From Mya arenaria (lineage: Eukaryota): a stretch of 64,000 nt of DNA. Below the pieces are notes generated by a model that was not told the DNA's origin, searched no databases, and saw only the letters and a program-made list of their open reading frames with translations. This document shows positions 1 to 46,136 of this stretch, one piece after another. The stretch covers positions 48,673,355 to 48,737,354 of the forward strand of contig NC_069133.1 in NCBI RefSeq assembly GCF_026914265.1, read 5' to 3'. Position 1 is the first letter of the stretch; each line of letters opens with the position of its first letter. A program made the translations under genes and the position numbers.

Positions 1-1200
1 AGCTGTCACAGTATGTGACGAATGCTCCCGAATGTGACATTGACCTATGAACAAGGTCAGTACATGAAAAGTTGACCTTGCCTTTACGTGTCAAATACAT
101 ATGGCAAGTTATTTTAAATTGCCTCTAAACAATAAAAAATACCACCCATACTTGACAACCTACACTGTTATGTCCTTATAAGCAGCATTCCATTGTGAAT
201 AAACACTAAGTGTGACCTTGAACTTAGAGGTAGGGGCATGGGTCTTGCATGTGACATGTCGCCTTTGTATGTCGGACACATGTGGCAAGTTATTTTTAAA
301 ATCTGTCCATACAAGGGAGACTTACAGCCCGGACACGACAACCTATACTCTATACAGACGGACGGACTGTGCGATTTTAATATGCCCACCTTTGGGGGCA
401 TAAAAATGGGCCAGGAGATTTTGATGAGAAATTATCAAAGTTTCCATAATTATAGACATACATGTATATAGTGAAAAGTAGCCCAACCCCTGGCGGCCAT
501 GTTTTTCAAAGAATCAACATGGGTGGAGGAATTTGATACAGGTTCACCTATGGAACATTTCTGTTAAAATATTAGAGACGTACAGCCCGGACACGACAAC
601 CTATACTCTATGTCCTTATATATGCAGCATTCTATTGTGAATAAACACCTAAGTGTGACCTTGACCTTAGAGGTAGGGACACGGGTCTTGCACGCGACAC
701 CTCGTCTTGGTATGTGAAACACATCTGGCAAGTTATTTAAAAATCTGTCCGTAAAAGGGAAAGTTACTGCCCGGACAAGACAACCTATTCTCTATGTCTT
801 TATATGCAGCACTCCATAAACACTATGTGTGACCCTGACCTATGAGGTAGGAACACGGGTCTTGCACGCGACACGTCGCCTTGGTATGTGGAACGCATGT
901 GGAACGTTATTTTAAAATCTGTCCATACAAGGGAAAGTTACAACCCGGACACAAGTTATTGAGCCGGACACACGGACTGACGGACGGTGCGATTTTAATA
1001 TGCCCACCTTCGGGGGCAAAAAAATGGGCCAGGAGATTTTGATGAGAAATTATCAAAGTTTCCATAATTATAGACATATATGTATATAGTGAAAAGTAGC
1101 CCAAACCCTGGCGGCCATGTTTTTCAAAGAATCAACATGAGTGGAGGAATTTGATACAGGTTCACCTATGGAACATTTCTGTTAAAATATTTTTAAATTG
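1..1200. repeat. Composite tandem repeat. Four ~190-bp subunits begin near 30, 207, 653 and 828. Two ~290-bp blocks at 283-577 and 905-1198 are ~95% identical, and both follow a GACGGACGGAC motif.
   Basis: Direct self-similarity seen in the sequence: tgtgaccttgaccttagaggtaggg... recurs, and ...gggccaggagattttgatgagaaattatcaaagtttccataattatagacat... is duplicated at 400 and 1025. ORFs in this span are short and lie inside the repeats. Confidence 0.8.
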
Positions 1201-2103
1201 GAGCAGTGGTTTCTGTGAAAATATTTTTTTCCTTTCATTGGCCACTTTTATTGAAGGAATCAGGAAGAGGACCAGCTTTGAGGAGTGATTACGTGAAGTT
1301 TGGTTGAAATTGTCCCAGTGATTTAGGAGAAGTGGTTTGAAGGTAAATTTTGATAACGGAGAACAACAGATGATTACCCTATCATAAAAGCTCATGCTGT
1401 GCACTTTCTGCTCAGGTGAGCTTAAAAGACAGACAAATCAAATTGGTGTTTGCTCGCGTCTGGATTTTGTTCTGTTCCCCCATTTACCAATCCATCATAC
1501 TATTTTTAGGAAAAATAAATATGAGGCTGTAATTCAGTTTTCAATTTCTATAAATTACATTGAATTTGGTTGATTATAGAGTAAATGAAACCCCAAAAGT
1601 GCCAGATGTAGGCTTTCTTGTTCTTGATACTCCCAGACATTCTTGATACTCCCAGAAGCACTCTTTGAAGATCCTAAGGACTTTAATTGATGTGATTTCA
1701 AAGGAATTATTCATTTTTCAAATGGCTTTAATCTTGTTTAGCTTTGAAATTTAACACCGCAATCCATGTTTGAAAGAAGAATAAAATCCACTCATTTACA
1801 TGCTGACATGTTTTTTGTGAGTTTAGTTAGTGTGGACATCCCTGACCCAGGCTACAGTCGGTCATGTTAGAGTTTTATGCCAAGTTGTAACTAAAAATGC
1901 TGCAATTTTACGAAACCAGCTTTATAATGTGGGTAATAAAAATTATAGCCAATTTATTTCTTGTATGAGTTAGTTAAAAGTACCAGCCTTTATCTTTACC
2001 AAAGAGACATAATTGAAAAGTACATTAGTTAAGTTATAGCTTATGTGTTTAGTTTCCATCAATTCTAACTAAAGTTGTTGGGCGGGAACCATTTTTCTAT
2101 TTT

Positions 2104-2462
2104 AAAGCTGCACTCTCACAGACTTACCGTTTTTACAACCTTTTTATTTTTTGTCTTGGAAAGAACAAATTTATGCGTAAATATCTGCAAACCAATAATA
2201 AAAGATTGCTAACAAAAGATCAGATCGCAGATTTTCATATTTCCGTTCGAAAATTAATGTTTTATGGCTTAAACCGTAAATAACGGTTTAAGAAAAATAC
2301 ATAAAATATCAATTTTTGAACTTATATTTAAAAATCTGCGATCTAACTTTTTGTCAGCAGTCTTATATAACTGGTTTTCATGCATTTTTGCAAAAAGTGC
2401 TCGTTCCAAGACAAAAAATAAAACGTTGTTAAAACATTCAATCTGTGAGAGTGCAGCTTTAA
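2104..2462. mobile_element. MITE-like non-autonomous element (~360 bp), nearly palindromic, with terminal inverted repeats aaagctgcactctcacag / ctgtgagagtgcagcttt.
   Basis: Termini at 2104 and 2444 are reverse complements. Internal inverted motifs are ttttgtcttggaaagaac / gttccaagacaaaaaa. The same termini recur at 15064, 19987, 29672, 33795 and 34628. Confidence 0.75.
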
Positions 2463-3596
2463 GTAACCTTTAACTTTGACCCCCCCCCCCCCCTTAAAAA
2501 AACAGTCATCCCAAGCTCTTCACATAAGCTTCACAACTTTCCTTACTATCTAGCTAGCTTATGTTATTAGGGGGAAACCAATGTTTTGATGCCTGGCCAC
2601 CTTTCAGTCCATTCATTGAAAATCTTATTCAAAATGGCACTGTGCTGCAGAAAAGGAAATGAGTGCTTAGGGAGAAAAGGGCACATTTAATCAGGCTGTG
2701 AAAAACTTAAATATTAGGAATTGTGTTTATTTATTATAATTGAAATAATAATTGGTTTCAACTGGCGAATATGTCAAGTTTGTATGTATTAATAATCATA
2801 TTATAAGTTTTCATTAAAACAAAAGATATATAACAATCATATGCAATAAAATCTATGACAGCAAAATGATTCCCATGCTGTTCACCATGAGTGCAAAAGG
2901 GTGCTTCCAATCAACGACAGGCGGCAGCATCCCTCCATAACTGAATCCTACACATGTACGATTATAAAACGACTTTCATTGAGGTCTTAAAAAGAGAACA
3001 TATTGCTTACACTGCATAAAAAAACAAAAAGTTATAACCAAGCCTTTCAAGTTAAAACTGTTATAGAAACAAATGTTAGGTGTATACTTAAAGGTCACAT
3101 CCAGGCTAATAATCTGATCCAAACAAGGCTTGGCTTGACTATTATATGTAATTACATATCAATTTCTAGGAAATGACTTCAGAATTGTCTTTCATCTTTA
3201 ATAATAACTCTTTCTTTGAGACAAATAATGACACAGTTAAATTACCACCAGTAGCAATGACCTGATCAATGTGAAAGCAATGGATTTTTTTAATAATTCC
3301 TCTAATTGCTCAATAAAAGATATTTTCCACACATGGTAAATTACACTTAATACAGCTTTATGAGGCTCAAAGATTCATGCATATTTACATTAGAAGTTAA
3401 ATAGTTATTTACTTATTATTGTTGTTATGAAAGACAAAACTTAGAGCTGTCACAGGAGTGATGAATACCCCCAAATGCCGCCTGGACACAGGACACACAT
3501 AACTCCAAGGTTACTGCACACTGCATCTTCTTTTATCATGCATGTATTGTTTTATTTAAATCTGTTGAGTAATTTAGAAGTTACACTGCTGACAAG

Positions 3597-4812
3597 AAAA
3601 ACTAGCCTTTCATGAGTTATCGTCCGGAAACCGTTTTTCTATTTTTAGTAACAGTGACCTTGACCTTGGCCCCACCAGCCCCAATATCGAACTTGACCTG
3701 TATCTTCTGATGTTACACCTGTGTACCAAAAATTGTTCAAATCTGTCTAGCCTTTCATGAGTTATCGTCTGGAAACCGTTTTTCTATTTTTAGTAACAGT
3801 GACCTTGACCCCACCAGCCCCAATATCTAACTTGACCTGTATCTTCTGATGTTACACCTGTATACCAAAAATTGTTAAAATCTGTCAAGCCTTTCATGAT
3901 TTATCGTCCGGAAACCGTTTTTCTATTTTTAGTAACAGTGACCTTGACTTTGGCCCCACCAGCCCCAATATCGAACTTGACCTGTATCTTCTGATGTTAC
4001 ACCTGTATACCAAAAATTGTTCAAATCTGTCAAGCCTTTCATGTGTTATCGTCCGGAAACCGTTTTTCTATTTTTAGTAACAGTGACCTTGACCTTGGCC
4101 CAACCAGCCCTAATATCGAACTTGACCTATATCTTCTGATGTTACACCTGTGTACCAAACTGTATCTTCTGATGTTACACCTGTGTACCAAAAATTGTTC
4201 AAATCTGTCTAGCCTTTCATGAGTTATCGTCCGGAAACCGTTTTTATATTTTTAGTAACAGTGACCTTGACCTTGGCCCCACCAGCCCCAATATCGAACT
4301 TGACCTGTATCTTCTGATGTTACACCTGTGTACCAAAAATTGTTCAAATCTGTCTAGTCTTTCATGAGTTATCGTCCGGAAACCGTTTTTCTATTTTTAG
4401 TAACAGTGACCTTGACCCCACCAGCCCCAATATCGAACTTGACCTGTATCTTCTGATGTTACACCTGTGTACCAAAAATTGTTCAAATCTGTCTAGCCTT
4501 TCATGAGTTTTCGTCCGGAAACCGTTTTTCTATCTTTAGTAACAGTGACCTTGACCTTGGCCCCACCAGCCCCAATATCGAACTTGACCTGTATCTTCTG
4601 ATGTTACACCTGTGTACCAAAAATTGTTCAAATCTGTCAAGCCTTTCATGAGTTATCGTCCGGAAACTGTTTTTCTATTTTTAGTAACAGTGACCTTGAC
4701 CTTGGCCCCACCGGCCCCAATATCGAACTTGACCAGTATCTTCTGATGTTACACCTGTGTACCAAAAATTGTTCAAATATGTCTAGCCTTTCATGAGTTA
4801 TCGTCTGGAAAC
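3597..4812. repeat. Satellite array, ~157-bp monomer x ~8. It ends in the short microsatellite (CCGACAGA)2-3 at 4826-4846.
   Basis: Monomer ...cctttcatgagttatcgtccggaaaccgtttttctatttttagtaacagtgaccttgaccttggccccaccagccccaatatcgaacttgacctgtatcttctgatgttacacctgtgtaccaaaaattgttcaaatctgtc... is repeated head to tail with a few indels. Confidence 0.9.
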
Positions 4813-4892
4813 CATGAAAACCGACAGACCGACAGACAAGCTCACTCCTTTATACCCCCACAAACGAAGTGTGATATTAATGAGAAAGATAA

Positions 4893-5165
4893 TTAAGACC
4901 ACTGAGGCATTGGCTTTGATGATAATCTCAGGGTACGTGGCTGACAATTTATAATTGTCTCATTAGTTTGAAAATCATAAAATAGAATTTTAACTACAAA
5001 AGAAAAATTCCTATCATTTAGGCCTGGCTTTGTTGATCAACTCAGTGTATGTGGCTGACAATTTATAATTATCTTATTAGTTTCAAAATCATAAAAAAGA
5101 ATTTTAACTAAGAAAGAACACGTCTACCATTTGAGCCTTGGCTTTGTTGATGAACTCATTGTACG
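4893..5165. repeat. Tandem repeat, ~115 bp x ~2.4. Its rightmost copy is the 3-prime end of CDC23 exon 11 plus the start of the following intron.
   Basis: ggctttgttgatgaactcattgtac (5134-5160) recurs as ggctttgttgatcaactcagtgtat (5025) and ggctttgatgataatctcagggtac (4911). Each copy is followed by ...gacaatttataatt...attagtttgaaaatcataaaa. Confidence 0.8.
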
Positions 5166-5216: not shown

Positions 5217-6028
5217 GAACTTTATTGTATGCTTTTCGGTGCTTTATAATAATTTTGCACTGTTTCAAAAAGTGAAAAATATAAATATGATTTTTTCCGG
5301 GGTTTTGAAATTTTAACCCGCTTCATATGTCATATCTGTGCACACAGAACTAGGAACAAATTTAAGCAACATCATTTATGAAAAGACATGATGTTTGCTT
5401 TTCTGAAAACTACAATTAACTGTCATTTTAAAACCTTTTTAGACTTAATAAAAATTAACTGGTTTTTTTTCAGTGTAATATAACAATAAATTTCACAAGT
5501 AAACATCAAAACGAAATATTTTATTCATGGTTACAACACTTATAAAATATAGGTTTTGGTGCTCACTCTGTGAAGTATAATTGCCATCTTACACTGAAAA
5601 AACACTTTAAACCTCCATATGTTGTAGCAAGAATAGATTGTTTCATTTTCCGTAGGTATTCTGAACATGTTTGTTTCACACGATAGCAAACAAGAACCAA
5701 CTGCACCATGGAGTGAACGCTAATGCTAGTCTGTTGATATTTTTTTAATTGATAGGGTGTTGATATGAATGGTTTATTATGAATTATTACCAAGGGTAAT
5801 GTTTCTGCTTGACTGCAATTCTACCTGACTGCTCTGAAAACAATCCCACTAATGCTAATGACACTAAAGTTTTCATGTTACCTGGACTGTTTTCTTCGAA
5901 ATAAACTAGTTTAAAAAAAGGAAATCAATGGACTAGGATGCTTTAAAAAGCTCTGGATAATATTCACTATGCATCATATTAATTTTCAGCTTTATGATAA
6001 GCTAACTTGACAATACTTTAAAACTAAC

Positions 6029-10372: not shown

Positions 10373-11095
10373 ATATGGATTTAGATTATGCCTCGGAGCA
10401 TCTTTATACTTGTCACACTGGACTTTAATTATCAAAGCAAACATGGCTGTTGTGTTACAATGTTACACCTCGTTATATTTCTTTATCAACTTGTACTTTG
10501 TGTCCTACTGACATCTCACAATAATGGGTTTTCAGTTAGGCCTAAAAATATAAATTGTTTAGTTAGGGTAACATCCTTTTCAAAAATAGGTAGGGTAGGT
10601 TGGCTTTTCATTTTTTATTTTTTATGAGGCTTTATATAAGAATGTAATTTTCATCATTGGAGAATGGTGTTAAAGTCATCTTCTGTATAAGAATTTAAGG
10701 TTTTCAACTACATATTGAAAAGCAGTTTTTCAAAAAAAAAATCAAATTGACTATAAAAACGGTAGGGTCGGCGCTTATTCCGTAGGTAGGGTCGGGTTAC
10801 CCGAACCAAATGTATTTTTTTTGTAGGCCTTATCATCATTCACATAAAGTATTTCCATAGCATCATAAATTGATTTTGGAACAAACAATCAGCTTACTTT
10901 AACCTAAAGCTAAACCTTCACAAAGATTCATTTTACATTTATATGAAGAAATAATGTTGCAAATATACGTATAAACACTCCAGCATATATTTTATATACA
11001 TGTAGTACCTTGTAAAAATTAAACACACAGACTTAATGTGTATTGAACTATGAGTGGTTTATACATGTATCTAAATAATTTGCTTGTTTTCTTAC

Positions 11096-11195: not shown

Positions 11196-11950
11196 CTGGA
11201 GAGAACAATCATTATATGTACAATGGTGGACAATAACAATTATGAATAGACAACATTGCATGAGTGGCCATTCAATACAGGTTTATAAAATTGACCAAAA
11301 CTAATACTAATTAATATATTTTACCTGACCGACCCTATTTATTTGCCAACAACTAAAAATTGAGTCCAAAAATCAAAGAAAAATCAAGTGCAAAAATGTG
11401 ATATCAGAACAAAAATTCGCCCAAACATGTGGCATTTGCAATGATTATTTTGTACTGCACTTCTCTTAAATGAGTCAACACCATTATGACTTTTCAAGAA
11501 AAGCTCCAGACAAAAAATAAGTATGAAAAGGGGCAATAACTATATAAACCTTTCCCCAGAGTTATGGTTTTTGTGCACTGCACTACTTCTAAATGAATCA
11601 ATAAAAAGTTTGAAGACACTACCTTAAAGACTTTTCAAGTTTATATCTTCGGAAAATATATATGAATATTTACAATGGGCAATAACTAAAACAATACTGC
11701 ACTTTGAGTTATAGTTCCTGTACACTGCACTTCTCCTCTATGGAACTTTATGTTTAAGAAGTCACAACCCTAATGCCTTTTTAAATTATCCTCAGGACAA
11801 GATTGCCTGGATGCACGCACACACACGCCTACCATTACTATATCTCCTCGGGGGATCATTAAGGCATCATAAGTATGTATTTTAGAGCATCAGAGAAATG
11901 CTGCCAACTTGCAATTTGTATATATAATAGAGAAAAACATGAACAAATAC

Positions 11951-15691: not shown

Positions 15692-17341
15692 TTAATAAAA
15701 AAGGAAATCTTCCATTTCTGCACATTTCATACCAACAATGAGATGTGATTTCACTTCTTTTTTAAAAGTATTCTTATTTTTCAATTCTTTTAACTTTATT
15801 GGAAGACTGTTCCAGTCCTGGATTGCTTGATAAAAGAAAGTATTTAATATAAAACTGTCAGCCTGTGGCACTTTAAAATTTCCAGCACTATGTCTACTGT
15901 TGTAAGAATGTGTGGATGAGACTAAAGTAAAATGTTCATGTAAGTGTGATGGGCATTTGCTATTAAAGATTGTATGTACATGGTTTAGTCGTAGTTGCTT
16001 TATCCTATTTTCTATATTAAGCCATCCAATATCACTGAAAGCCGAGACTTTCAGGGAAGTTCTACAATCATAGCCATAAATAAATCTGACAACTTTGTTC
16101 TGAGTGACCTGTAATCTGTTCTTGAATTGTTTACATATACCACTGTACCAAGATGTCGATGCATAGTCAAAATGGCATTGTATTAAGGAGTTACATAACA
16201 ATCTTCTTAGATTCATATCTAAAAAACGATTTTGTCTATATAAAAATTTTAGCCTAGAATTAACTTTACTGACAATATTGTTAACAATAGATGCAGCACT
16301 GAGATCATTGTCCAGTATATTTCCAAGATATTTAACAGATTGTTTAGGTTTTATGATATGGCCATTGCAGTTTACATTAAAGCTATCAACTTTTGTTAGT
16401 TTTCTTTTAGACCCAAATAAAATACATTCTGTTTTTCCAAGATGCAAAGACAGTTTGTTGTCAACTAACCACTTACTACAGTTTTCAAGTTCCTTGCCGA
16501 GTACATTACTAATAACAGACGGATCTTTGTGTGAGAAAAGGATAGCACTATCATCTGCATATAATATTAATTTACATTTTTCACTTATGCTTATACTCAT
16601 ATCATTGACATAGCATAAAAACAGCAACGGTCCAAGTATGCTTCCTTGAGGAACGCCACAAGAGATGTTCATGAATTCAGACGTTGTATTATTTACATTG
16701 ACAACTTGTTTACGTCCAGATAAATATGATTGAAACCAATCAATTGAATCCACACCAATTTCTTTTAACTTCTGACATAGAATTTTGTGATCTACGGTAT
16801 CAAACGCCTTTTGAAGATCCAGCATAATCATTCCTGTATATAGACCTTTGGAATTTTGTTCTTTTATATGGTCGGTCAAATGAATTAGGCAGGAGTCAGT
16901 TGAATAGTTACATCTAAAACCACTCTGAAGTTCGTATAATAATCCATGTTTAACAAGAAAAGATTCTAGTTGGTTGTATACAACTCTTTCTAAGATTTTT
17001 GAAACTATACATAGTATGCTTACAGGTCGATAGTTTGAAACATCAGATCTGTTGTTTTTCTTAAACAATGGTTTAACTTTAGCATTTTTGAGTTCAGATG
17101 GTACAATGTTACTTGTGATAGAACTGTTTATCAGAAATGTTACTGGTATCTTTAAAAATGGTGCAGCATCTTTTAAAAATCTTGCAGGAATGTTATCTAA
17201 CCCTGTGCTTTTTGAACAATTTAGTTTACATAGTTCCTTGTAAATGTATTCTTCACTAACAGTGTGAAGTTTAAATTTAACAGAGTCAGGATTTCTATCT
17301 TTATAAAATCGTTTAAAACAGTCAGACTCATAGTTAAACAA
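15692..17341 (-). CDS. LINE reverse transcriptase domain, carrying on from the endonuclease ORF after a frame disruption.
   Basis: 549 aa with RT motifs: RPVSILCIVSKILERVV, GFRCNYSTDSCL, MIMLDLQKAFDTVDH, and YADD in LILYADDSAILF. The C-terminal segment is Cys/His-rich. Confidence 0.85.
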   Translation of the reverse strand: MFNYESDCFKRFYKDRNPDSVKFKLHTVSEEYIYKELCKLNCSKSTGLDNIPARFLKDAAPFLKIPVTFLINSSITSNIVPSELKNAKVKPLFKKNNRSDVSNYRPVSILCIVSKILERVVYNQLESFLVKHGLLYELQSGFRCNYSTDSCLIHLTDHIKEQNSKGLYTGMIMLDLQKAFDTVDHKILCQKLKEIGVDSIDWFQSYLSGRKQVVNVNNTTSEFMNISCGVPQGSILGPLLFLCYVNDMSISISEKCKLILYADDSAILFSHKDPSVISNVLGKELENCSKWLVDNKLSLHLGKTECILFGSKRKLTKVDSFNVNCNGHIIKPKQSVKYLGNILDNDLSAASIVNNIVSKVNSRLKFLYRQNRFLDMNLRRLLCNSLIQCHFDYASTSWYSGICKQFKNRLQVTQNKVVRFIYGYDCRTSLKVSAFSDIGWLNIENRIKQLRLNHVHTIFNSKCPSHLHEHFTLVSSTHSYNSRHSAGNFKVPQADSFILNTFFYQAIQDWNSLPIKLKELKNKNTFKKEVKSHLIVGMKCAEMEDFLFY

Positions 17342-19133
17342 AGGGCAAAGGTAGTTTTTTTACTAAAGTTGAGGCTACAGTAGTAAAAAAAGTATTAAAG
17401 TGATTTGCAATCTTACATGGTTCAAAACAATTTTCATCATCAATGTTCAAAACAATATTTGGAGAAGATTTACTTTTACTACTATATCCAAGATTTTTTA
17501 AATCTGACCACAGCTTTTTTGGATCATTTTTATTTTCTTCCAGCTTGTTCGACATATATTCCGATTTGGCCTTAATAACTTCTTTCTGAACAAGGTTTCT
17601 GTAAAAACGATATTTATCTAACATCTCCTTCTGTTTGTATATTTTGAATTTGAAATAAAAAGCATCTCTTTGACTGATGAGTTCCAGAATGTTAGAATCT
17701 AACCATGGTTCACTTCTTTGTTTTAGTCTGACTTCCTTAACAGGAGCAACAGTGTTCAAAACTGACAGAAATGTTTCTTTAAAAGACAGCCATGAATCTT
17801 CTACAGTTTTTGCAATAAACATGTTTGACCAATCGCAAAGTTTAAGTTTGTGAATAAAATGATCTACATTGTAATGTTTCAAAGACCTTACAACAACATT
17901 CTTATGCATATTATACGTCCCTTTCTGTGTTTTACGCGTACAAAATACAGGCAAATGATCACTGAGACCTATCGGAAGAGTACCAGACTGAACAATCTTG
18001 TTTTGATGGCTACATAAAATGTGATCTAACACAGAAGAGGAGGACTCTGAGATTCTGGTAGGGTCATTTATGATCTGTTTTAGATTAAAGATATTAAGAA
18101 CTTGTTCAAACCTTTTAAAAAGAGCTGATTTCTTTGCAAAAAAACAAATGTTAAAATCACCAAGGATGTACCATTCTGTGTCAGATCTAACCATAGATAA
18201 AACATTTTCAAAAATATCAACAAAATCTGTTTGTTTAGGTGGTCTATAACATGACCCTATTAAAATAGGTTTGGTTTTTGGTAATAAAATATCAGCCCAC
18301 ACTGCTTCAAGATTGTCATTTTCTAGGTCCCGTCTTTCGGTGAACGCCAGATCTTCATTAACGTATAAGCATACTCCACCACCTTGTCTGTTCCGGTCCT
18401 TTCTGATCACATTGTATCCTTGAATTTGTATTTCCGAGTCCATAACTGAATTGTCCAGCCAGGTCTCTGAAAACGCTATGGCTGCAAATCTATATTTTGA
18501 CATTAAATGTCTCACTTCGGGCAACTTTGGTAATAGAGATCGTATGTTGAAATGAATAAAATGAAGTCCTTTAAGTTCAAAGCAGTTAAAATTACTACAA
18601 GATTCAGCAAAACTATTGTCATGTAAATCTGGCAGAATTCTATCATGAATATCGTTTAAATCATCACAAAGATAAAAAGATAATAATTTAAAAGTACATA
18701 TCCGACAAGTGAAATAGAAAGATCCATTAGATTTGCATACGTTTGAGTAAAAAGAATCACTTATATAACCTGAGCATCTTATATGTGTCCGGATTTCACA
18801 AAAATCACAGTTGACAGCTTTACTACGGGCAGTTACACCTTTTCCACAAACCGAACAAGGAAATTTAGGTTGTCTCCCTTTTTTCATATTTGAAAATCCC
18901 GAATTATCAGCATACTTGTCCTGTTCAATAGGTCCAGGGTGAGGGTGCACGTCACCACTTAGTAGAAGGAACACGAAAAATATATATCTTGGATTAACCT
19001 TGGCATAATACTTCTGAAGGTTTTTAATAGTTCTCATGGAGGATACAAAATGGCTGGGTGCCACTTCAACCACTGGGGGCGAAAGGTACGAAAGAATTTC
19101 AAACGTGAAAATACTTTTTTTTTGTAGAGTCAA
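17334..19133 (-). CDS. LINE ORF2 N-terminal part. It has a 2A-like motif, a PHD-like zinc finger (CSVCGKG...CDFCEIRTHIRC) and an apurinic/apyrimidinic-type endonuclease domain.
   Basis: 599 aa. EEP/APE hallmarks are present: ...NIRSLLPKL..., GDFNICFF, LSDHLPV. A Cys/His cluster lies upstream of them. Confidence 0.8.
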   Translation of the reverse strand: MTLQKKSIFTFEILSYLSPPVVEVAPSHFVSSMRTIKNLQKYYAKVNPRYIFFVFLLLSGDVHPHPGPIEQDKYADNSGFSNMKKGRQPKFPCSVCGKGVTARSKAVNCDFCEIRTHIRCSGYISDSFYSNVCKSNGSFYFTCRICTFKLLSFYLCDDLNDIHDRILPDLHDNSFAESCSNFNCFELKGLHFIHFNIRSLLPKLPEVRHLMSKYRFAAIAFSETWLDNSVMDSEIQIQGYNVIRKDRNRQGGGVCLYVNEDLAFTERRDLENDNLEAVWADILLPKTKPILIGSCYRPPKQTDFVDIFENVLSMVRSDTEWYILGDFNICFFAKKSALFKRFEQVLNIFNLKQIINDPTRISESSSSVLDHILCSHQNKIVQSGTLPIGLSDHLPVFCTRKTQKGTYNMHKNVVVRSLKHYNVDHFIHKLKLCDWSNMFIAKTVEDSWLSFKETFLSVLNTVAPVKEVRLKQRSEPWLDSNILELISQRDAFYFKFKIYKQKEMLDKYRFYRNLVQKEVIKAKSEYMSNKLEENKNDPKKLWSDLKNLGYSSKSKSSPNIVLNIDDENCFEPCKIANHFNTFFTTVASTLVKKLPLPFV

Positions 19134-22557: not shown

Positions 22558-24039
22558 TGATTGATGCAAATGGGTGTAAAGTATTGTTTAGATGTGAACT
22601 AAGAAGTTAAACTATACAAAATATGACAGAATGCACAAATTATCCATGAGTATAATATACAGTATAATATAATATGAACTCATTTATGTAATTATATTAA
22701 TGTTAAATGATTATAAAATGAAATTATGCGTTTCAAATTGATGCATTTTCATATCTTATTTGAAAAAACTTCAGTAAAAAAAATCTAATTTCATTTTTAC
22801 TTAAGTGGGTGGGGTAAATTAACCCCTAAATATAATTTGTTTTTTGCATCCTCTCAAACCAAAATGGAACTGTTGCCAGATTATAAACCCTTATAAGTTT
22901 AATAACCTCACTCTCGAGTATACTTTGGTGAAAGTTTTATTAAAACGATAATCATTGCTTTCATTTATCAAAATAAACAACAGGCATGCTCAGATTTTGT
23001 AGAATTTTATCGTTAAGTAAGTTCATTTTTTTCAAATTTCCCATTGGTTTCTAGGTGCAACTTTTTTCCTCTAAAGTAGATATATTCTTTTAACAGGAAA
23101 CATACAAATGATTTTTTTTTGCAATTTCTTCACACTTCGATGCTATTTTGAGCTACGATGATTAGCCTATAAAATTTGTCTAAAAGTATGATGGAGGTGC
23201 ACCCAGTGTTTAAATTTTTTCATTGTTCACGCAGAAACAGGGTGGCATAAATGCTAGCGAAGCGTCATTGCCCCTGAATTCTTAGTCAGTTACCGGTATA
23301 TCCAATGTCAGTATTTAGCTGAAAACTATAGGAAAATTTTGTTTATTAAAGTACAAAAATCACTCTGCTGATTTCATAAGAACGTCAATAGTTCATTAAT
23401 TTGAGATTTAATAACACCATTCACTGAATATATCCCGGATTATAGACAAATTACACGTATACAAATGGAGTTTAATATAAGTCGAACTCTGCTGATTTTA
23501 TTAAAACATCAATAATTCATTAGTTGATGGATTAAGAAAACCATGCAACGAATATATTCCGGATTATAGAAAAAATAACGACGCAGAAAAACATGGATCC
23601 AAATACCAAGAATAATGATTAAACTTTGTCTAAGAGCATCTGTACTTTAATTGTACAAAACAAGAACGTACCGACTAACGCGCATGCTGTTGACCGTATA
23701 ACTTTGTGTTTTTGTTGAGAAATATTTGTTTAGGGCATGAATTATTTTATTTCTGATTTAGAATTCACTAAAATTTAGTACAGCGTAATCGAAGACGCCA
23801 GCGATGACAACACCATGGAGCTGGCAATGCCTGGAATTTTGTATCAGAAATACAGACAGCATAAGTCCAAAATGTGACTACCGGCATATAGCGCAAAATA
23901 TATATGCACCTTTTTCGACGGGATTGGTGATGAGAACAATACTTATTTTGATGCGACGCCACGACTGTTTTTGAAACATGACTAAAAAGAAGAAGATGCA
24001 GTTCACAAGAATACCAAGTTTGAGGTACCTGGATACAAG

Positions 24040-24765
24040 CATTTTTCAGTTATTGAAATAAATCGGATTTTCAATTTAAAGTCAGCACGACCTTGACTTT
24101 TGACCAACTGACGTCAAATAGTGGGGATACTGATCAAGTTAGAGGGACCACTACCAAGTTCGGGGTATTACGGTCACAACTTAAGGTCAAAGCGACCTTA
24201 ACCTTTGACCTACTGACCTCAAAAGCAAAAAGGTTCATCAGCTGGTCATTACCAACCTTACTTTAATAATCAAATTTTGAGGTCATTTGGCCATAGCGTT
24301 TTTCAGTATTTAACTTGAAACAGATTTTCAGCTTAAGGTCACCACCAACTTGACCTTTGATCCACTGACCTCAAATCAAATATGGTTCATCTGCTAGTTA
24401 TGACCAATCAATTGCTACCAAGGTGGAGGTTCCTGAGCAAAAGCGTTCCTCAGATATTAAATGTAAACTATTTTTCTTCTTAAGCTCACCACGATCTTGA
24501 CCTTTGACCCACCAATACAGTTATTATGGTCATGACCTACCTACCCAGAAAGTTTAAAATCCCCGTGGCTAAGTGTTCTTCATATTGTTCGGAAACCGAT
24601 TTTCAGCTGAAGGTTATCTTGAGGCAATCAAATGATTTCAAAATCAAAGGACTTTATCTGTTGGTCATGACCAACCTGTCTTCATTGTTTAAGAACCCTT
24701 GGCAGCGTTCTTTAGAAAGTGAGCAGAACCGTGGGGACGGACGGATGGACGGATAGAATATCAAA
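24040..24765. repeat. Satellite array, ~120-bp monomer x ~5-6, ending in a (GGAC/GGAT)n microsatellite at 24741-24765.
   Basis: Monomer ...ttaaggtcaaagcgaccttaacctttgacctactgacctcaaaagcaaaaaggttcatcagctggtcattaccaacct... repeated, followed by ggggacggacggatggacggatag. Confidence 0.85.
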
Positions 24766-25789: not shown

Positions 25790-26220
25790 AACGATATCAA
25801 GTCTGATTTAAGACTTAATCCTGGGGTCATGGTTACGAACAGCCTCAATTCTGAGTTGTGACTCAACCCTGGGGCCATGCTTTGGAACAGTCTCAAGTAT
25901 AAATTCAGGCTAAATCCTTGGGCCATGGTTACGAACAGCCTCAATTCTGACTCAATCCTGGGGCCATGGTTACGAACAGCCTCAATTCTGAGTTGTGACT
26001 CAACCCTGGGGCCATGCTTTGGAACAGGCTCAAGTCTAAATTCAGACTCAATCCTGGGTTACCATGTTTACCAACAGTCTCAAGTCTGTGTCCAGTTGTA
26101 TTCCTGGAGCCATTGTTGCGAACATTTTCAAGTTTGAGTTCAGTCTTAATTCTGGAGTCATGCTTACGAACAGTCTCAAGTCTGAGTTCAGACTCAAGTG
26201 GGAAACTGCAAATTTTCATT
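25790..26220. repeat. Tandem repeat, ~57-60-bp unit x ~7 (tcaaNcctggggccatgNttacgaacagNctcaaNtctga).
   Basis: Direct repetition seen in the sequence. Overlapping ORFs appear on both strands, which is typical of stop-poor tandem repeats. Confidence 0.85.
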
Positions 26221-31945: not shown

Positions 31946-32351
31946 ATGGAAGGAATTTCATCCGGCGTTGCGATTACTTGGAGAAATCAGAGTACTGGTG
32001 GTGATAGTGAACATCTATTCCACAACACAACTGGCAACGGAAGTGAACCTCTATACCAATACTCAACTGGCAATGATAGTGAACATCTATACCAATCGTC
32101 AGACCAGCCGTACATTCCCATGTACCTGAATGTACTAGTGGCGGTGCTTAACGCTATCATATTCATCATTGGCGTTACGGGAAATATTCTGGTCATCACT
32201 GTGATCTTAAAACTGCGGGAAATGAGGACGCCGACAAATGTGTTTCTGCTAAACTTGAGTGTAGCAGACGTCTTGTTTCTGGTCGTGTGCCAACCTGCCG
32301 CTCTGCTCGAGTTCTTTGGAAAGGACAGGTGGTTTCTAGGGGAGGCCATGT
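31946..32351 (+). CDS. Class A (rhodopsin-like) GPCR, exon 1. It encodes the N-glycosylated N-terminus, TM1, TM2 and the start of TM3 up to GEAM-.
   Basis: ATG at 31946. N-x-S/T sites are present. TM1 is IFIIGVTGNILVITVIL and TM2 is NVFLLNLSVADVLFLVV. The conserved W (DRWFLGEAMC) is present. The donor consensus gtgagt sits at 32352. Confidence 0.8.
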
Positions 32352-33794
32352 GTGAGTTATGCATTTCTTTATCACTTTTGTGATTTGTGTTTTTTTATTT
32401 TTTAAAAAGAAATATTGGCAGCTAGCTAACCACTAATTTCGAGAGGAAGGACGTAGCGAATCATGACTATTATTTAGCACCGTAGATGAGCATTATTCGA
32501 TAAATTATCGCTGATGGCCTTCCACAGTGCAAATGTCGTTGAATGACCAAAACATACAATGCTTAAAAAAACTTTATTTTTCATTTAATTTTGAGGTAAC
32601 AAGCATAACACATTCACCTATACATATTTTTGAAACATTTTAATTTGGCCTTTCCCACCAATTTTTGCATTGTGGAAGGTCCTTGTCGACTCGCGGTCCT
32701 TTACAATTTTGTAATGCGACACTTATTTATATGTGCAATGCATCTGTAAAAATATCCTTTATTGTTGTGGGTCTTCAACAGACTAAATGATGCAATCAAC
32801 CTATTGCTAATCACTTCTTTCAACAGATTTAGATGTTGATAACCGTTTTTTCCCAACTCGACATGATCTATAAAATGAGAATGAAAGATACAATACACAT
32901 TCCAATAAAAGTATGCCGTATTCATCCGAGAACGTTATAGTTGATAACAAAAGAACGTGCAAATATATAAATGTACAATATATTTGTTGTTACTGATTTT
33001 ATTAGGCCACATCAATTTAATGTTCTGTTCTTCGGATTCTGTCAGATATAAATCGGAGCTAGCAGACAATTTTTAAAAATAAAATAAAAAACAAACCCGG
33101 AGTGGACAGAGGTGTAACCAAATTTTCATACTTAATTAATCATTTAGAATATTTATCCTGAATAGGTTCAACTTTATTCTTCCTCTTAAATGTAATTTTA
33201 AGCAAAACCCAGGAGTAATCATTACAAATAACTATTTCAATTGTTTTGGGAGTCGTCAAAGACATATAATGACATGTTTTGCTTTGTGTGATACATTTTC
33301 TGGGAAATAGACGCGGAACGTAGAACGAAACGTCAGTGTTATGTGGCCGAAACAATATCAAAGTAATCAGACCAACACTGATTAAAATAAATATGTACCA
33401 CCCCGTTGAATTTCCTGATGGATAAATTAATCTTAATGTTAAATGTTGGGGCCTTGTGACTCCATACACTTTTGGTATTAAGTTTATGTTTGCTTATGTG
33501 CAATCACGAGTACATTCCAAGGGCTCTAGTCATTGCAGTTGGTATTTTTACACTTTATTTCAACTGAAATTGGACGTGTAACAACCTATTTTTATGAAAT
33601 GATGTAAGGGCTAAAACGTTTGTCACATACATCTGCGATTAGCGTGTAGCGTAACTGTGTATTATTTCTGATTATCCATCAGTTATTTTTCGCATATGCT
33701 TACATCATATAAGTGATAATAGCAACCATATTTTAACTTTACAAACAGTTACGTAAACTTCACAATTTCCTTTTAAATGGTTCCCTCAATATTC

Positions 33795-36175: not shown

Positions 36176-37071
36176 GTAAACTCGTGCCGCTGCTGGAAAA
36201 CGGTACACTGCACGTGTCCATTCTGACGATGCTCGCGGTGACATTCGAACGCTACTTTGCCCTCTGCCATCCCCTTAAGCAGCATATGGTTTGCACAATC
36301 TCAAAGACAGTCAAGTGTCTTCTCCTCATATGGGCGGTTGCCGTGTTTTTGACAGTACCTTTTCCCGTAATGACTGTCCTTGAAGATGCTACTTTCTATG
36401 ACGGAACTCCTACTAAAGTGTGTAGAACCAAAATAAACTCCTCGTGGAAATATGGTTATACTATTTTCGTTGTAGTCGCCTTTTTTGCCATTCCATTGAT
36501 TATTCTAGTAAGTATTTATATCAAAATCATTCATCAGCTCATGTCAGATACATTGAATAAGCTGACACAAAATAAAAGATCAGCTTTACAGACAATCGCG
36601 AGACGACAAGTTGTGTATATGCTTATTCTAATTATGGTTCTCTTTTTTGTAACTTTATTCCCAATACGTGTTTTAACGCTGTGGTTAATATTCAGCCCGG
36701 CTGAAAATGTCTACACAATTGGATTAGAGGCATTTCTGAATTTAATTTCTTGGTCCAGAATCCTTATGTATGTCAACAGTGCGGGAAACCCGATCATTTA
36801 TTGTCTGACATCAACAAAATTTAAAATGGCATTTAAGCGCTTACTAAAACGTAATGATGGTTATCTTTATGTTAGCTACAATACAATGACTGCAAGATTC
36901 AATGTTCATCGGGCATATAAAGGTGATCCAGAGAGGGCCCGAACGATCACCAGAAAACCAATAGATATATCATCATCGAAATCCACCACGTCAGGATCTA
37001 AACCAGCTGGTGACGACCAACACCAAGATGTTGACAAACTGAATGGAAGTACCAGGCACAGTTTTGATTGA
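36176..37071 (+). CDS. Class A GPCR, exon 2 (TM3-TM7 plus C-tail). It carries ERY and NPxxY motifs and is neuropeptide-receptor-like, of the ghrelin/neuromedin-U/TRH receptor superfamily type.
   Basis: Acceptor attttcag| at 36174-36175. Phase 1 joins T+GT into TGT, the conserved TM3 Cys of ...EAMCKLVPLL.... Motifs present: TFERYFALCHPLK and NSAGNPIIYCL. Stop at about 37069-37071. Confidence 0.8.
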
Positions 37072-37920: not shown

Positions 37921-37952
37921 CAATAAACTGTCTGTCTGTCTATCTGTCTGTC
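37921..37952. repeat. (CTGT)n/(CTAT) tetranucleotide microsatellite.
   Basis: ctgtctgtctgtctatctgtctgtctat. Confidence 0.9.
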
Positions 37953-41260: not shown

Positions 41261-41859
41261 ATTCCCAGATAACAAAACATTTAATATGTCCCTACTTTAA
41301 CGTCTTCCAAGTCAAGTGCTGTATAACGTGGTCTTTAATAGATGGAAGTGATTAAGCTGATAATGGTCCATCGCTGATGTATTTACACTGTCTATATTAC
41401 TGTGTTTTTTTCCTGGTTTCCTAGCAAATATTTATTTGTACAGTCATTCTAAGTGACCGGACACGAGTCCCTTGAAAAGAGTCGGATTTGACTATTTTTT
41501 AAATTCTGAAGATATCGGCTAGGTTGTTAGCTTTAAAATTTTATCCCGGAATATATCACAATCGTTGTCATAGACAGTAGTCGTAAATATTAAAATATAT
41601 ACAGCTTTGCATCGGCCTCAAATAACTTGACGCGTCAGGCAAAAAAAAATAATACCTGTGTCTCCGGTAACATGGCGGTAAAAAATAGGGTCGGTCGGTC
41701 GGGATATTTTTTTTTATTTTTTTTTACAGTTTCCATATCATGCAATTTTCTGTTGCATCAGATCAATAATTTTAACTAAGCTTATCATAATATACAAAAA
41801 GTCAGAGAAAAACAGTATTGTTAAATGTCTGAAATCATTTTCTTACCTTCGACTACCGT

Positions 41860-42790
41860 ATTTTCCCGCCAATTTTGCCCATGAAATCTGGTGTTGTTCA
41901 TATACAATACTCGTTTATAAGTCGCGATCGGGTTTTAGAACAAATCCAGCACTTCAATTTCTACAAATCTGTGATAATGTAAATAATTGATAATGTTCTA
42001 GCCAAACAGTCAATTATTAACTAAATAAATTTTGTTAATTTGCTTGAGGAAAATCGCCGATTTTCATGTCAACTGTGAGTTCCTTAAACTAGGCCTTCAA
42101 GTGGATGTAGGTTAATAATAGAACAAGTAAACGCGGATATGGATTTATTTTACGTATCTTATTTTCGTACAATCAAAGTTTCATTCATATTAATAGTGAA
42201 TTCAAAAATTTCGGTCATTGTTTTAAGATTCCCAGACGACGATTATTGATTTTTTTTCGATCGTATGGTATTTTCTTACCAGCTTAGGCGAAATCCTGGC
42301 AATCAAATGGGATCATACGGTATCCGACCGACCGAATTAAATACAAACCATAGCTACGCGCCTTTGATCTTATCACCGCTCCTGCTCTGACGTCACAAAT
42401 TGTACGGTTTGATCTACAGCCGACACATTCCAATAAATGTGTTGTTAACTTTCGCAAGTTATTGTTTGGATTTCAGTTGATAGGACTTAAATAAGGCGAA
42501 ATAAATAACCATTGATATTTGCGGATACATTAATGTAACGATTAATGAAATGCGTATTGGAACCTGGCAGTTAGGCTGCATAAATTCGCAAAGCCTAATC
42601 GTAAGAAGCCTGCATGATATACGCAAAGCCTTATCGTAAAAAAATAAGTTTTATTTTGGACATGGATAAATAACACTGCGAACTATAATCCTAAATATTT
42701 TCATTATAAAGACAGCAAAATATATATGTCTTTTGTGATCAACCACGTGTTTGGACCGTAAACATGCGTTTACCAATTTGAAGATACCGG
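41860..42790 (+). repeat. Second copy of the ~850-bp interspersed repeat first seen at 12195-13040. Here it is bracketed by inverted motifs ggtcggtcgg...ttaccgga.acaggtattttttttt at 41645-41720 and 42965-43040.
   Basis: Alignable to 12195-13040 by eye. The flanking motifs are reverse complements of one another, which suggests a ~1.4-kb TIR-bounded non-autonomous element. Confidence 0.6.
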
Positions 42791-44983
42791 ACAGGGTTCG
42801 CCGCCCTCCGCCATTTTGTTTTCCTGTTGACAAAGAGTCTCGGTTATACATACTCAGGAATGAAAGTTTATTCTCCAGGGACGTAGAAAAAAGGCAAACA
42901 ACGATATATTTAAGAAATATTTTTTTACAATAGAATTTAAAGAAAATATTTTTTTTTTCCTTTATGTCTAAAAAAAGATAAGGGTCGGCGAGAAAAAAAT
43001 AGCGTCGGTCGGGTTACCGGAAACAGGTATTTTTTTTGGCCTCAGGTTCATTAACAATATCACTAAATGCGTCGTTTATATAAAAGTTCATAATGAACTA
43101 ATGAGTGCTAATATAATCCTTTCTTGATGTCCATCTCGTATCTGAGAGAATAGTGAGAGTCTGTCCTTTTGAAGCATACTGAAAATTGACATATTCGTTT
43201 TCCTCCTCACACTCTGATGAGTCGGCTAAAAGGTCCGCCACTGCACTTTTAAATGACTTGTGTCGTTTGCGAGGTTGTGAAAAAAGAAAGTTAGTTGTTG
43301 AAATTTGTTCATAAAAATGCGAATCGATGGCACCTGGGTGCATGATGTGATAACTACTAGATTTAATCAATGACTATTAACTTGTTTAATGTATTTAGCA
43401 TGCAGATAAAAGTCAGTAATCCGAGTCTGATCGCCACTTACTTGGCCACTCATTGGCGATGCACCATCAAACATTTTCCCTCGACAATCGTTAGGTCTAG
43501 GTACAATTGTTGTTGACTGTGGCGATGTAAACTTCGTAATCTTTGGTGTTCTTTTCAGATGTCAGGAAATAAATTCATCATATGTGCTTATCCATTCCTT
43601 AAAGAACTTATAATTGCCGTTCTCGCGGTTTAGGTCTTTTAACAATCTCCCTCTGAAAGGAATTCCACGTGATGAATGTTTTATAATAGTTTTGATTATA
43701 TCCATAAGAACATGTCTGTGTTCGCTTATTTTAAAACGCGCGTCAACTGAGTGTTAAACAAGCGTTCTTTACACTTAGCAACTCCAGATATTTGTATTGA
43801 TAAGTTTATACATGCCGCCTATATTTTAGCATATCTGAAATGGAAAATGCAAAAATTAATTAATTAAATTAGTATATATTGTTGTCTAGGATATTACATA
43901 TCTAGAACATTTGAAATTTATGCGGACTCGTTTGAACAATACGGAGTCCTATTCTATGAATAGAGCGTGTCGTCAGTACTCGAGCAAAAAGGCCTTGCTG
44001 TATTGTTTGATACAATAAGTCCCGGCAGTGCTAAATTTTCTGTATCTACGGCATAACTCATAATTAAATGTGTCATTGTAGTCGTTCCTCGAATTCAGAA
44101 GTCGATTTTATTAGTTTTCATATCATTAGCTATTCTTATTTATTTTATGTGTTTTTTTTTCGCTCTCCAAATTGGCGGTGTGCGTCAGTGTGGCTACGGC
44201 GCTGTCATGTCGAGGAACCGTCTACTGATATTGAAAACCAACAACAACTGTAAAACAAATTGACGGAACGATATGACTGCTTCACTAATTGTATGGCATA
44301 GTCGTTAAGAACATACTATTCTACAAAAAGGGGAAACGATGCTATTTTTGAAAATATATTGATTAATCAACTATTAAAGGCTGGTATAAAGAATAGCATG
44401 TAATGATGAATTTGTACAAGAAATAGTTCTTTAGTAAGTATTAATCATTAAGATAACACACGATATGATTGCACCTGCAGTAAATGAACACAGTGAAACA
44501 TCCTGAAAGTCTATTTTTAAGGTCATACATAATTGAGTTTGAACACTGCTTGTCCTAGTGGTTTGTATACATGTTAATTTCTAGAGGTTGCGTACAGAAC
44601 TTTCTATCCTTGCGATAAGTAAAGGTAGGGTGTGAGCTCTTGAGATTCAAATTAAAGTCATATCATTGGAGTCTATGTAAACGTATCATAGATTTATAAC
44701 AAGAGGCACAAAGAACGACGCCAAAGTTCAGTTACTTCTCACTTCACCCATTGTCAAGTGAAGTAAGGAGAAATAATTCCAAATTTGTTGACTTATCATT
44801 AATTGTACAATATTTTTTTCACTTTCAAATCGAGCGGTAGTCATTGTTACAAATCAATTCTAGCTAATGAAAAGAAGCGATGATTTTTGTTTTATATATT
44901 TGAATCATAAGATAGCCACGACACGTTACAACACAATAAAAGCTACATGGACAAGAACTTTTGTCATAAATTTAGATATAAAC

Positions 44984-45640
44984 CCTGTTGTTTTTTCTCA
45001 TTTATTTTGAATATAGTTATTGTAATAACTGAAAAGCAATCTGAAACACATTATAAATCTGATATAGATTTAAACGTTGTTGTTTTTTCTCATTTATTTT
45101 GAATATAGTTATTGTAATAACTGAAAAACAATCTCAAACACAATATAAATCTGATATAGATAAAAACGTTGTTGTTTTTTCTCATTTATTTTGAATATAG
45201 TTATTGTAATAACTGAAAAACGATCTCAAACACATTATAAATCTGATATAGATATAAACGTTGTTGTTTTTTCTCATTTATTTTGAATATAGTTATTGTA
45301 ATAACTGAAAAACAATCTCAAACACATTATAAATCTGATATAAATAAAAACGTTGTTGTTTTTTCTCATTTATTTTGAATATAGTTATTGTAATAACTGA
45401 AAAACAATCTCAAACACATTATAATTCTGATATAGATGTAAACGTTGTTGTTTTTTCTCATTTATTTTGAATATAGTTATTGTAATAACTGAAAAGCAAT
45501 CTCAAACACATTATAAATCTGATATAGATATAAACGTTGTTGTTTTTTTCTCATTTATTTTGAATATAGTTATTGTAATAACAGAAAAACAATCTCAAAC
45601 ACATTATAAATCTGATATAGATATAAACGCTGTTCAGAGG
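44984..45640. repeat. Tandem repeat, 92-bp unit x ~7.
   Basis: gttgttgttttttctcatttattttgaatatagttattgtaataactgaaaaacaatctcaaacacattataaatctgatatagatataaac is repeated with point differences. Confidence 0.9.
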
Positions 45641-46136
45641 CACAAGGTAAGGGCCTTAACGACACTGTTACAGAAGAACAACCGTACAAGCAGACGACAA
45701 ACCCATTCAAATAGCATTATAAATAGATGATGGGATTACCGCCTTGAAACGGGCCGTGAAACACACTGGAGCACATGTGTATCACTGGGGATTCTAACTA
45801 GTTTACATGCGGATAACCACACACATGTTTCCACATTTATCATCGGAGTCAGCATTAACTTGAAAGCAATAAAAAAAAATAATAACATATAAACTTTTCA
45901 GTTACTACAAGTACTTAACGACTGAATGATTCAAATCGGAGAAACAATGCTTATTTTATAAAAGGTAACATAAAGGCATTCAAAGACATCTTTCTGACAT
46001 AGATTGTCCTAACAAACTCAAAATTAAAACATTACTGTAATGGTGAATACATCATCGTACAAACCAGGAAGAAAAACATATATAAATATATAATTAAACA
46101 AAAATAACATAATATCTAATGTTCTTTGATATATCA

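Follow-up and report, generated by a model that had tools for sequence, protein, structure and literature searches.

Non-autonomous Helentron-type transposons (HINE or DINE-1 elements) carry subterminal inverted repeats (subTIRs) of 11–15 bp, with an inverted repeat (IR) near the one on the 5′ side. A short microsatellite and a 3′ stem-loop are further marks, tandem repeats may occupy the center, the boundaries have T-runs and insertion is into TT (Thomas et al., PMC4067079). In oysters, satellite-like arrays reside inside such elements, where GTCY, GTCC or GTCK microsatellites accompany repeats of 140–180 bp in a fixed orientation (Vojvoda Zeljko et al., PMC7492417). The DTC84 and pearl elements have their modules on the opposite strand in the order left flank, core repeats, (ACGG)n and right flank, with ordered monomer variants and a spacer on the left side (Satovic and Plohl, PMC3879986). 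Here we describe three tandem-repeat cassettes, designated A, B and C, in a 64,000-nucleotide stretch of the genome of the clam Mya arenaria (GCF_026914265.1, contig NC_069133.1, positions 48,673,355 to 48,737,354 of the forward strand; hereafter, the window). The three cassettes are very probably copies of non-autonomous Helentron-type transposons, kin of pearl, DTC84, the oyster Cg_HINE elements and DINE-1, and two of them are damaged or decayed. A and B are uncatalogued families of a well-described kind of element and leave the picture of such elements unchanged. The searchable literature yielded no account of HINE or pearl elements from Mya.

A sequence-only reading of the window had proposed three arrays (1–1200, 3597–4812 and 24040–24740), each capped by a microsatellite, followed by unique sequence and built of monomers with a common motif. 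G/C-rich runs are indeed present at all three sites, yet the region 1–1200 is not a single array. The second array is a clean 145-bp repeat at 3604–4813, and the third is real but decayed (24007–24733). The common motif holds for A and B (TGACCTTGACC), whereas the C array carries a variant of it, CTTGACCTTTGACC. Unique sequence does not resume directly after the microsatellite; rather, a conserved terminal module of ~40 bp bearing a hairpin intervenes. The further suggestion that pearl/Helentron-type elements carry the arrays is supported for A and B by their termini and dispersal.

Element ends that recur at unrelated loci

In the window, the arrays stand in pearl orientation on the plus strand, and the minus strand is the HINE-forward one. 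Read on the minus strand, element A opens with TTTTT and the 5′ subTIR ATGCCCCCAAA (401–391), followed by the IR GGTGGGCAT, a (GTCC/GTCT)n microsatellite and 180-bp repeats, and closes with the 3′ subTIR TTCGGGAGCAT (32–22), the stem-loop GTCACAtacTGTGAC (19–5) and AGCT. Its 5′ module, or left flank (LF), occupies positions 368–406, with the IR at 381–390, the subTIR at 391–401 and the T-run at 402–406. The microsatellite (354–367, with GACGGACGGAC at 357–367) reads (ACGG)n on the plus strand. The central repeats (14–353), delimited with BLAST and global alignments, comprise a diverged monomer m0 (approximately 14–139), a monomer m1 (140–322) and a 31-bp stretch that starts the following monomer (323–353). 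The 3′ module, or right flank (RF), spans 1–45 and includes the stem-loop GTCACA/gta/TGTGAC (5–19) and the 3′ subTIR (22–32). The element ends at or near position 1–2, (A)GCTGTC..., which is the edge of the window.

Element B, also on the minus strand, follows the same plan. Its RF (3445–3480) has the end (A)GCTGTCACAG, a weak stem-loop (3449–3462) and the 3′ subTIR TTTGGGGGTAT (3475–3465), so that on the minus strand the subTIR and stem-loop lead into an A-like end, ...CTGTGACAGCT. The 11-mer AGCTGTCACAG, the common 3′ end of A and B, is found only at positions 1 and 3445. A spacer (3481–3603) separates the RF from the central array (3604–4813), which holds ~8.2 copies of a 145-bp monomer that are 94–100% alike. 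Tandem Repeats Finder (TRF) and alignments resolve this array into eight monomers plus a 29-bp terminal piece, with 0–9 differences per monomer pair, an aberrant 127|51 composite junction at 4159/4160 and a 6-bp deletion in two monomers. After the array come atgaaaa and the microsatellite CCGACAGACCGACAGACA (4821–4838), which is (CCGACAGA)2.25 on the plus strand and (GTCT GTCG)n, a GTCK type, in the orientation of the element. Other B copies have (CCGA/CAGA)n of variable length in the same place. The B LF is at 4839–4880 and is rearranged.

The termini and hairpins for which the sequence-only reading had suggested a search were found in the flanks of A and B. When up to one mismatch was allowed, the subTIR variants matched five times in the inspected array flanks, always at predicted positions: 22 (minus), 391 (plus), 1009 (plus), 3465 (minus) and 4852 (minus). 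Four array ends in one orientation, each abutted by a microsatellite of the GTCN class, are far beyond chance. The length of this cap varies from copy to copy; its sequence is (GTCC/GTCT)n for both A and C and (GTCT/GTCG)n for B. Monomers of A measure 180 bp, those of B 145 bp and those of C 152 bp, and their orientation to the microsatellite is the same throughout.

Copies of the two families were then collected from 13 environmental or assembly contigs. An exact-pattern scan of metagenome contigs with the A end yielded seven, and a comparison of the open frames of the B monomer with a protein database matched six contigs that encode spurious "proteins" and carry B arrays. Across nine copies of the A-type end (two in the window and seven in contigs), similarity ends right after GGGGGCATA(A/C)AAA, and the 5′ subTIR ATGCCCCC(G/A)AA is preceded only by TTTT(T). 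In all seven contigs the similarity halts at GGGGGCATAAAA, beyond which the DNA differs from that of the window; four of the seven have a second flank in common among themselves. This coincident stop fixes the 5′ end of the element.

One contig, L007, holds a complete A element of ~590 bp with the order RF-m0-m1-m2-partial-microsatellite-LF, unrelated DNA on both sides and subTIRs that match perfectly (11/11), ATGCCCCCGAA and TTCGGGGGCAT. The window RF is 95% identical to positions 2965–3007 of L007 (oriented), again in different flanking DNA. Furthermore, m0 of the window and the first, diverged monomer of L007 are 95% identical. The preservation of m0 between loci indicates that the order of monomer variants was copied with the element, as for DTC84.

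B arrays are present in all six contigs of that family; those of L010, L011 and L013 end in ...caagctcactcctataTATACCCCCTCAAACttcGTTTGTGGGGGTATAA, after which the contigs diverge from one another. In L009, the B RF lies in a different left flank, and the array has the same 127|51 junction (accaaa|ctgtatc) with the neighboring diagnostic substitutions. As these idiosyncrasies match those of window B, the B cassette was copied as a unit. The RF boundaries coincide in window B, L007 and L009. The spacer is also conserved, 3498–3603 being 100% identical to positions 33–138 of L011 and 3446–3603 being 84% identical to L009. In both contigs, a further ~350 bp of unique sequence follows the RF-side spacer before the array begins (250–600 in L009 and 139–490 in L011); window B lacks this stretch. 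A 25-mer of the B monomer had no match in the bacterial and archaeal genomes or the viral contigs scanned.

Dispersal with conserved flanks, the other check suggested beforehand, is thus seen in both families: seven contigs have A ends and six have B arrays, and three of these six show the intact B end followed by unrelated flanks. The arrays are cargo inside elements whose defined ends are found again at unrelated loci. Cassettes are present in full at different loci with matching internal peculiarities, and the arrays change locally after insertion. With two to eight monomers bounded by conserved modules found again elsewhere, these arrays differ from classical satellites.

Rearranged and decayed copies in the window

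The region 1–1200 is made up of two short arrays of 180-bp repeats, each followed by an (ACGG)n run, a conserved 38-bp end and a duplicated 168-bp flank piece (the "tail"). The first unit (1–406) consists of the RF, m0, m1, the 31-bp partial monomer, the microsatellite and the 38-bp end. The second unit (576–1024, minus strand) is a partial copy of A that lacks an RF and aligns to the m1-m2-partial-microsatellite-LF part of L007. It contains two monomers of 175–185 bp (581–764 and 765–938), a terminal partial monomer (939–970), a microsatellite-like stretch (971–987) and the LF (988–1024) with its 5′ subTIR (1009–1019). TRF reports a 174-bp repeat in this region at 581–951. The second microsatellite run is degenerate, with GACGGACGG (979–987) lying inside cacggactgacggacgg (971–987).

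The non-element tail follows both units, at 407–575 and 1025–1191, and its second copy is the sign of a ~620-bp local duplication that took in non-element DNA. The tail and end of the two units match at 200 of 205 positions, whereas their monomers are only 72–89% alike; positions 581–611 are identical to 323–353 (BLAST). We considered the 168-bp tail as part of the element, that is, as a long LF or a junction in a head-to-tail multimer of Helitron style, and rejected it because all other copies end before the tail. The tail is absent beside every other copy of the element end and from all 13 loci. As similarity in the other copies stops before it, the tail is host flank.

Comparison with L007 suggests that the ancestral element at the A locus had the order RF-m0-m1-n1-n2-partial-microsatellite-LF. 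A tandem duplication would have copied everything from n1 through 168 bp of flank (~620 bp), and as a last step ~360 bp would have been deleted from the first unit. A single duplicative repair event would be expected to produce the same outcome.

In element B, the damage is in the 5′ hairpin. The family consensus of the LF (L010, L011 and L013) is TATACCCCCTCAAAC-ttc-GTTTGTGGGGGTATAA, in which 15-bp arms pair at 14 of 15 positions before the flanks diverge, and its 5′ subTIR, TATACCCCCACAAAC, lies 2 nt from the boundary. The window copy has lost GGGGG from the outer arm, and the center of its hairpin is inverted relative to the consensus. Specifically, the loop TTC reads GAA and the single arm mismatch T reads A, each the complement of the original; we take this complementation as the sign of an inverted center. 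In folding calculations the consensus hairpin reached −14.5 kcal/mol (z = −4.9), versus −2.1 kcal/mol (z = +0.2) for window B. This one copy points to an inversion of the palindrome center rather than to point mutations. As a rather improbable reading, such a change would fit a strand switch mediated by the hairpin while the element end is replicated.

A motif search to the right, up to position 6000, retrieved no intact second 5′ subTIR for B. Given its broken 5′ hairpin, the window copy of B is probably immobile. Its array is the longest and most homogeneous seen, which points to growth in place. About 30 bp outside the 5′ end of B is a 114-bp repeat (2.2 copies, 4911–5165).

Element C is a more decayed array (24007–24733, minus strand) of about five monomers of ~152 bp with ~62% identity. 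It is absent from the TRF output, and short-word BLAST recovers it through self-hits (E = 1e-25). Directly after the array is the microsatellite GGACGGACGGATGGACGGA (24735–24753, minus strand), or (GTCC/GTCT)n in HINE orientation. The C monomers are significantly similar to the repeats of L004 and L007 (z = 22 versus L004, local alignment against shuffles), and in these two contigs the C-like repeats adjoin a GTCY microsatellite and a ATGTCTCCCC/GGGGAGACAT hairpin. From its architecture and the homology of its monomers to the repeats of bona fide elements, we interpret C as a relic of an old element.

Probable assignment to Helentron-type elements and competing explanations

The assignment to Helentrons draws on structure and on the literature (PMC4067079; PMC7492417). 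Folding of the LF of A predicts a hairpin with a 7+2-bp stem at −7.3 to −8.5 kcal/mol (−7.3 kcal/mol and z = −2.4 for the window copy). The 3′ stem-loop of window A pairs 6 bp (GTCACA/TGTGAC) at −4.5 kcal/mol (z = −2.0). A T-run forms the 5′ boundary in every case, and no direct repeat was observed in the flanks; the 3′ end of the element is resolved to ~3 nt in three copies.

Several observations weigh against a Helentron origin. The 3′ stem-loops are short, with 5 bp in L007 (z = −0.5) and 4 bp in B, and in neither of these two can the folding be told statistically from that of shuffles. The 3′ boundary is known to ~3 nt only, and insertion into TT with no target-site duplication is presumed here from the family. 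Neither the window nor the loci fetched contained an open reading frame (ORF) for an autonomous Helentron (Rep, helicase or endonuclease), and the longer A-type contigs L001 and L003 had no Rep/helicase partner; only analogy ties the elements to Helentron enzymology. Element C has no recognizable terminal hairpin or subTIR beyond its microsatellite. Lastly, the added copies come from environmental metagenomes and one assembly, so that their species is inferred from identities of 91–100%.

The absence of a Helentron partner, together with the inverted repeats at the ends and the T-run at the 5′ boundary (AAAA on the plus strand), would also suit MITEs (miniature inverted-repeat transposable elements) with terminal inverted repeats (TIRs), which a DDE transposase would move by cut-and-paste. 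The terminal AA/TT would then be a 2-bp target-site duplication rather than a product of rolling-circle transposition. DTC84 and pearl were first described in these terms (PMC3879986). However, the modules together make up the signature of DINE-1/HINE elements, linked by Thomas et al. to partner Helentrons with the same ends (PMC4067079), and the 3′ end, ...GACAGCT(CT), is no mirror of the 5′ end, TTTTTATG. We therefore regard cut-and-paste MITEs as quite improbable. Canonical non-autonomous Helitrons fit worse still. Repbase does name the oyster counterparts "Helitron-N" (PMC7492417, Supplementary Table S4), but such elements have a 5′ TC, a 3′ CTRR, a hairpin of 16–20 nt located ~11 bp from the 3′ end and insert between A and T. 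The Mya ends, TTTTTATGCC... and ...CTGTGACAGCT(CT), have no 5′ TC, CTRR or long 3′ hairpin; the stem-loop is 4–6 bp and subTIRs are present. This makes a canonical Helitron scarcely credible.

Ordinary satellite or variable-number tandem arrays could also have arisen in place and acquired shared flanks through segmental duplication. Local duplications do exist in the window (the ~620-bp unit in 1–1191 and a 4.4-kb tandem at 46134–54985), and the B array, far more homogeneous than other copies, points to growth in place. Segmental duplications would, however, give random breakpoints, whereas nine A-type and three B-type ends stop at the same nucleotide with unrelated DNA beyond. Moreover, the 92-bp and 69-bp arrays of the window have neither microsatellite caps nor hairpin ends, so the architecture is not general to arrays in this region. 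An origin in place is, on this evidence, highly improbable.

Helentron-type elements thus offer the preferred explanation, and their organization can be proposed as follows. An intact element would begin on its 5′ side with a short T-run and a subTIR of 11–15 bp; this subTIR would pair with an IR next to it, giving a hairpin. A (GTCY/GTCK)n microsatellite would come next, and then an array of 145–180-bp monomers in which the variants keep a set order, with a special partial monomer at its terminus. The 3′ side would be made up of a spacer, the 3′ subTIR, a short stem-loop and finally ...GACAGCT. By analogy with the family, a Helentron Rep/helicase/endonuclease acting in trans may recognize the subTIR/hairpin ends and copy the whole cassette into T-rich targets with no target-site duplication (PMC4067079; PMC7492417). 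The satellite-like array and the microsatellite would hitch-hike with the mobilized cassette.

That Helentron-type elements carry satellite-like arrays as cargo is a rule known from oysters and Donax, and the window extends it to a myid clam. The window also provides precise end modules for two Mya families (for A, the ATGCCCCCGAA subTIR, with TTTTTATGCCCCCGAAGGTGGGCATATTAAAATCGCAC as LF and ...TTCGGGGGCATTCGTCACATACTGTGACAGCT as RF; for B, the TATACCCCCACAAAC subTIR, with TTATACCCCCACAAACGAAGTTTGAGGGGGTATATAGGAGTGAGCTTG as LF and ...CATTTGGGGGTATTCRTCACTCCTGYGACAGC as RF), which can be used to annotate a large repeat fraction that is otherwise unclassified. For annotators, a short array that ends in (ACGG)n is the interior of a transposon rather than an independent satellite or microsatellite locus. 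Marker design is affected as well, since microsatellites of this class have common flanks across loci. Furthermore, the window illustrates the fate of elements after insertion, with array growth beside a broken 5′ hairpin in one case and a local duplication that carries flank DNA in another.

Monomer relationships, other window features and known relatives

The motif TGACCTTGACC, with up to one mismatch, occurs 17 times in the window versus 0.5 expected, always on the plus strand and inside arrays A and B, at one or two per monomer. In an alignment-free test over eight sampled monomer families, GACCTTGAC alone among 9-mers occurred in every family; the runner-up, AGTTATTGA, is in five of the eight. 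By eye, GACCTTGAC falls in a box adjoining the junction between monomer and microsatellite. Apart from it, the eight families are ~60% alike or unalignable. The B and C monomers form one superfamily (z = 17.6 for B versus the L004 repeat), and under stringent scoring the A monomer has only a 14-nt box in common with B and C. Comparisons of the A and B monomers with one CL1/Cg170-type monomer of C. gigas, from the Cg170/HindIII (BIV160-related) satellite family of bivalves, scored no better than shuffles (z = 1.6 and 2.2, respectively).

On the forward strand of the element the box reads GGTCAAGGTCA, or AGGTCAAAGGTCAAGGTCA in C-like families. AGGTCA is a nuclear-receptor half-site, and we take both versions of the box to be direct repeats of this half-site with DR0/DR1 spacing. 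The box might be functional, either under selection for element propagation as a protein-binding or replication signal or as a means by which the elements seed the clam genome with receptor-binding-site arrays open to co-option by the host, although we consider such a function unlikely. A literature search for a conserved box in mollusc papers returned nothing relevant.

Among the other repeats of the window, no HINE hallmarks were seen at the 114-bp repeat (4911–5165), a 48-bp repeat (25797–26197), the arrays at 44973–45634 and 58002–60466, or a (CTGT)n run at 37928. The array at 44973–45634 is AT-rich, with 7.2 copies of a 92-bp repeat at 95% identity. The one at 58002–60466 has ~35 copies of a 69-bp monomer that contains a 10-bp inverted repeat, GCTCGACATT/AATGTCGAGC. 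Because the 69-bp array has no microsatellite cap or hairpin end, it is not HINE-borne and behaves like a plain satellite. At 46134–54985, two copies of a 4,426-bp segment lie in perfect tandem (46134–50559 and 50560–54985, 99.91% identical), either a very recent duplication or an assembly artifact.

A MITE of ~350 bp (approximately 2106–2459, within 2040–2500) has perfect 18-bp TIRs, AGCTGCACTCTCACAGAC, and is bordered on either side by TTAA in the manner of piggyBac-type insertions; the sequence around it is a solitary relic of a B/C-like monomer. A repeat family with aaaaatagGGTCGGTCGG ends beside CCGGTAAC/GTTACCGG, in both orientations, is another element bearing a GTCG-type microsatellite (41650–41702, 42324–42335, 43000–43030, 10770–10800 and 11327–11345). 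The minus strand also encodes two ORFs of a non-long-terminal-repeat retrotransposon (15692–19133), endonuclease-like and reverse-transcriptase-like, of 599 and 549 amino acids. On the plus strand are two exons (31946–32383 and 36184–37071) of a G protein-coupled receptor similar to QRFP/orexin receptors. The second of these exons matches "OX2R-like protein [Mya arenaria]" at 97% identity, which points to M. arenaria or a very close relative as the host; its next-best matches (~55–66%) are from other bivalves, such as Ruditapes and Mercenaria, or environmental sequences.

Among known systems, DTC84 of Donax trunculus and the pearl elements CvA, CvE and CvG of Crassostrea virginica have the same modular order on the plus strand as the Mya elements (PMC3879986). 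The common order is a left flank, an optional spacer, one to five or more core repeats of ~150–180 bp, an (ACGG/ACGA/ACTG)n microsatellite abutting the last repeat and a right flank of ~40–50 bp. Also shared are inverted repeats placed subterminally in one flank and close to the terminus in the other, AA at the ends, a fixed order of monomer variants, a special last repeat beside the microsatellite and a G(C/T)CCGGA box at the monomer junction. The likeness is to the described layout; the DTC84 primer sequences do not resemble the Mya flanks. Window B, with ~8 monomers, also exceeds the usual five or fewer.

The Cg_HINE elements of Crassostrea gigas (Helitron-N*_CGi in Repbase) agree in having an LF composed of a 5′ subTIR, an IR 1–12 bp away and a GTCY/GTCC/GTCK microsatellite, satellite-like repeats of 140–180 bp in fixed orientation, an RF with a 3′ subTIR and, more tentatively, a palindrome, and T-rich boundaries (PMC7492417). 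They too coexist as several families with common flanks and/or monomer boxes (PMC7492417), a likeness that again refers to the described layout. Unlike in Cg_HINE, where a segment of 10–500 bp separates the microsatellite from the first repeat, the Mya microsatellite abuts the array and the variable spacer is on the RF side.

More distant relatives include DINE-1/INE-1 of Drosophila, the HINEs of mites and mosquitoes and MINE-2 of Lepidoptera. Features in common are subTIRs of the 13-bp class with an IR a few bp from the 5′ one, a microsatellite that is short and, in Lepidoptera, of the GTCY type, central tandem repeats as an optional part, two to five T at the boundary and, more tentatively, the 3′ stem-loop (PMC4067079). 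The Mya 3′ subTIR, however, is ~23 nt from the end, versus 38–60 nt in mite HINEs. Furthermore, in contrast to DINE-1-type elements, the Mya 3′ stem-loop is 4–6 bp long and ends ~4–6 nt from the terminus, and the elements do not contain the DINE-1 core sequence.

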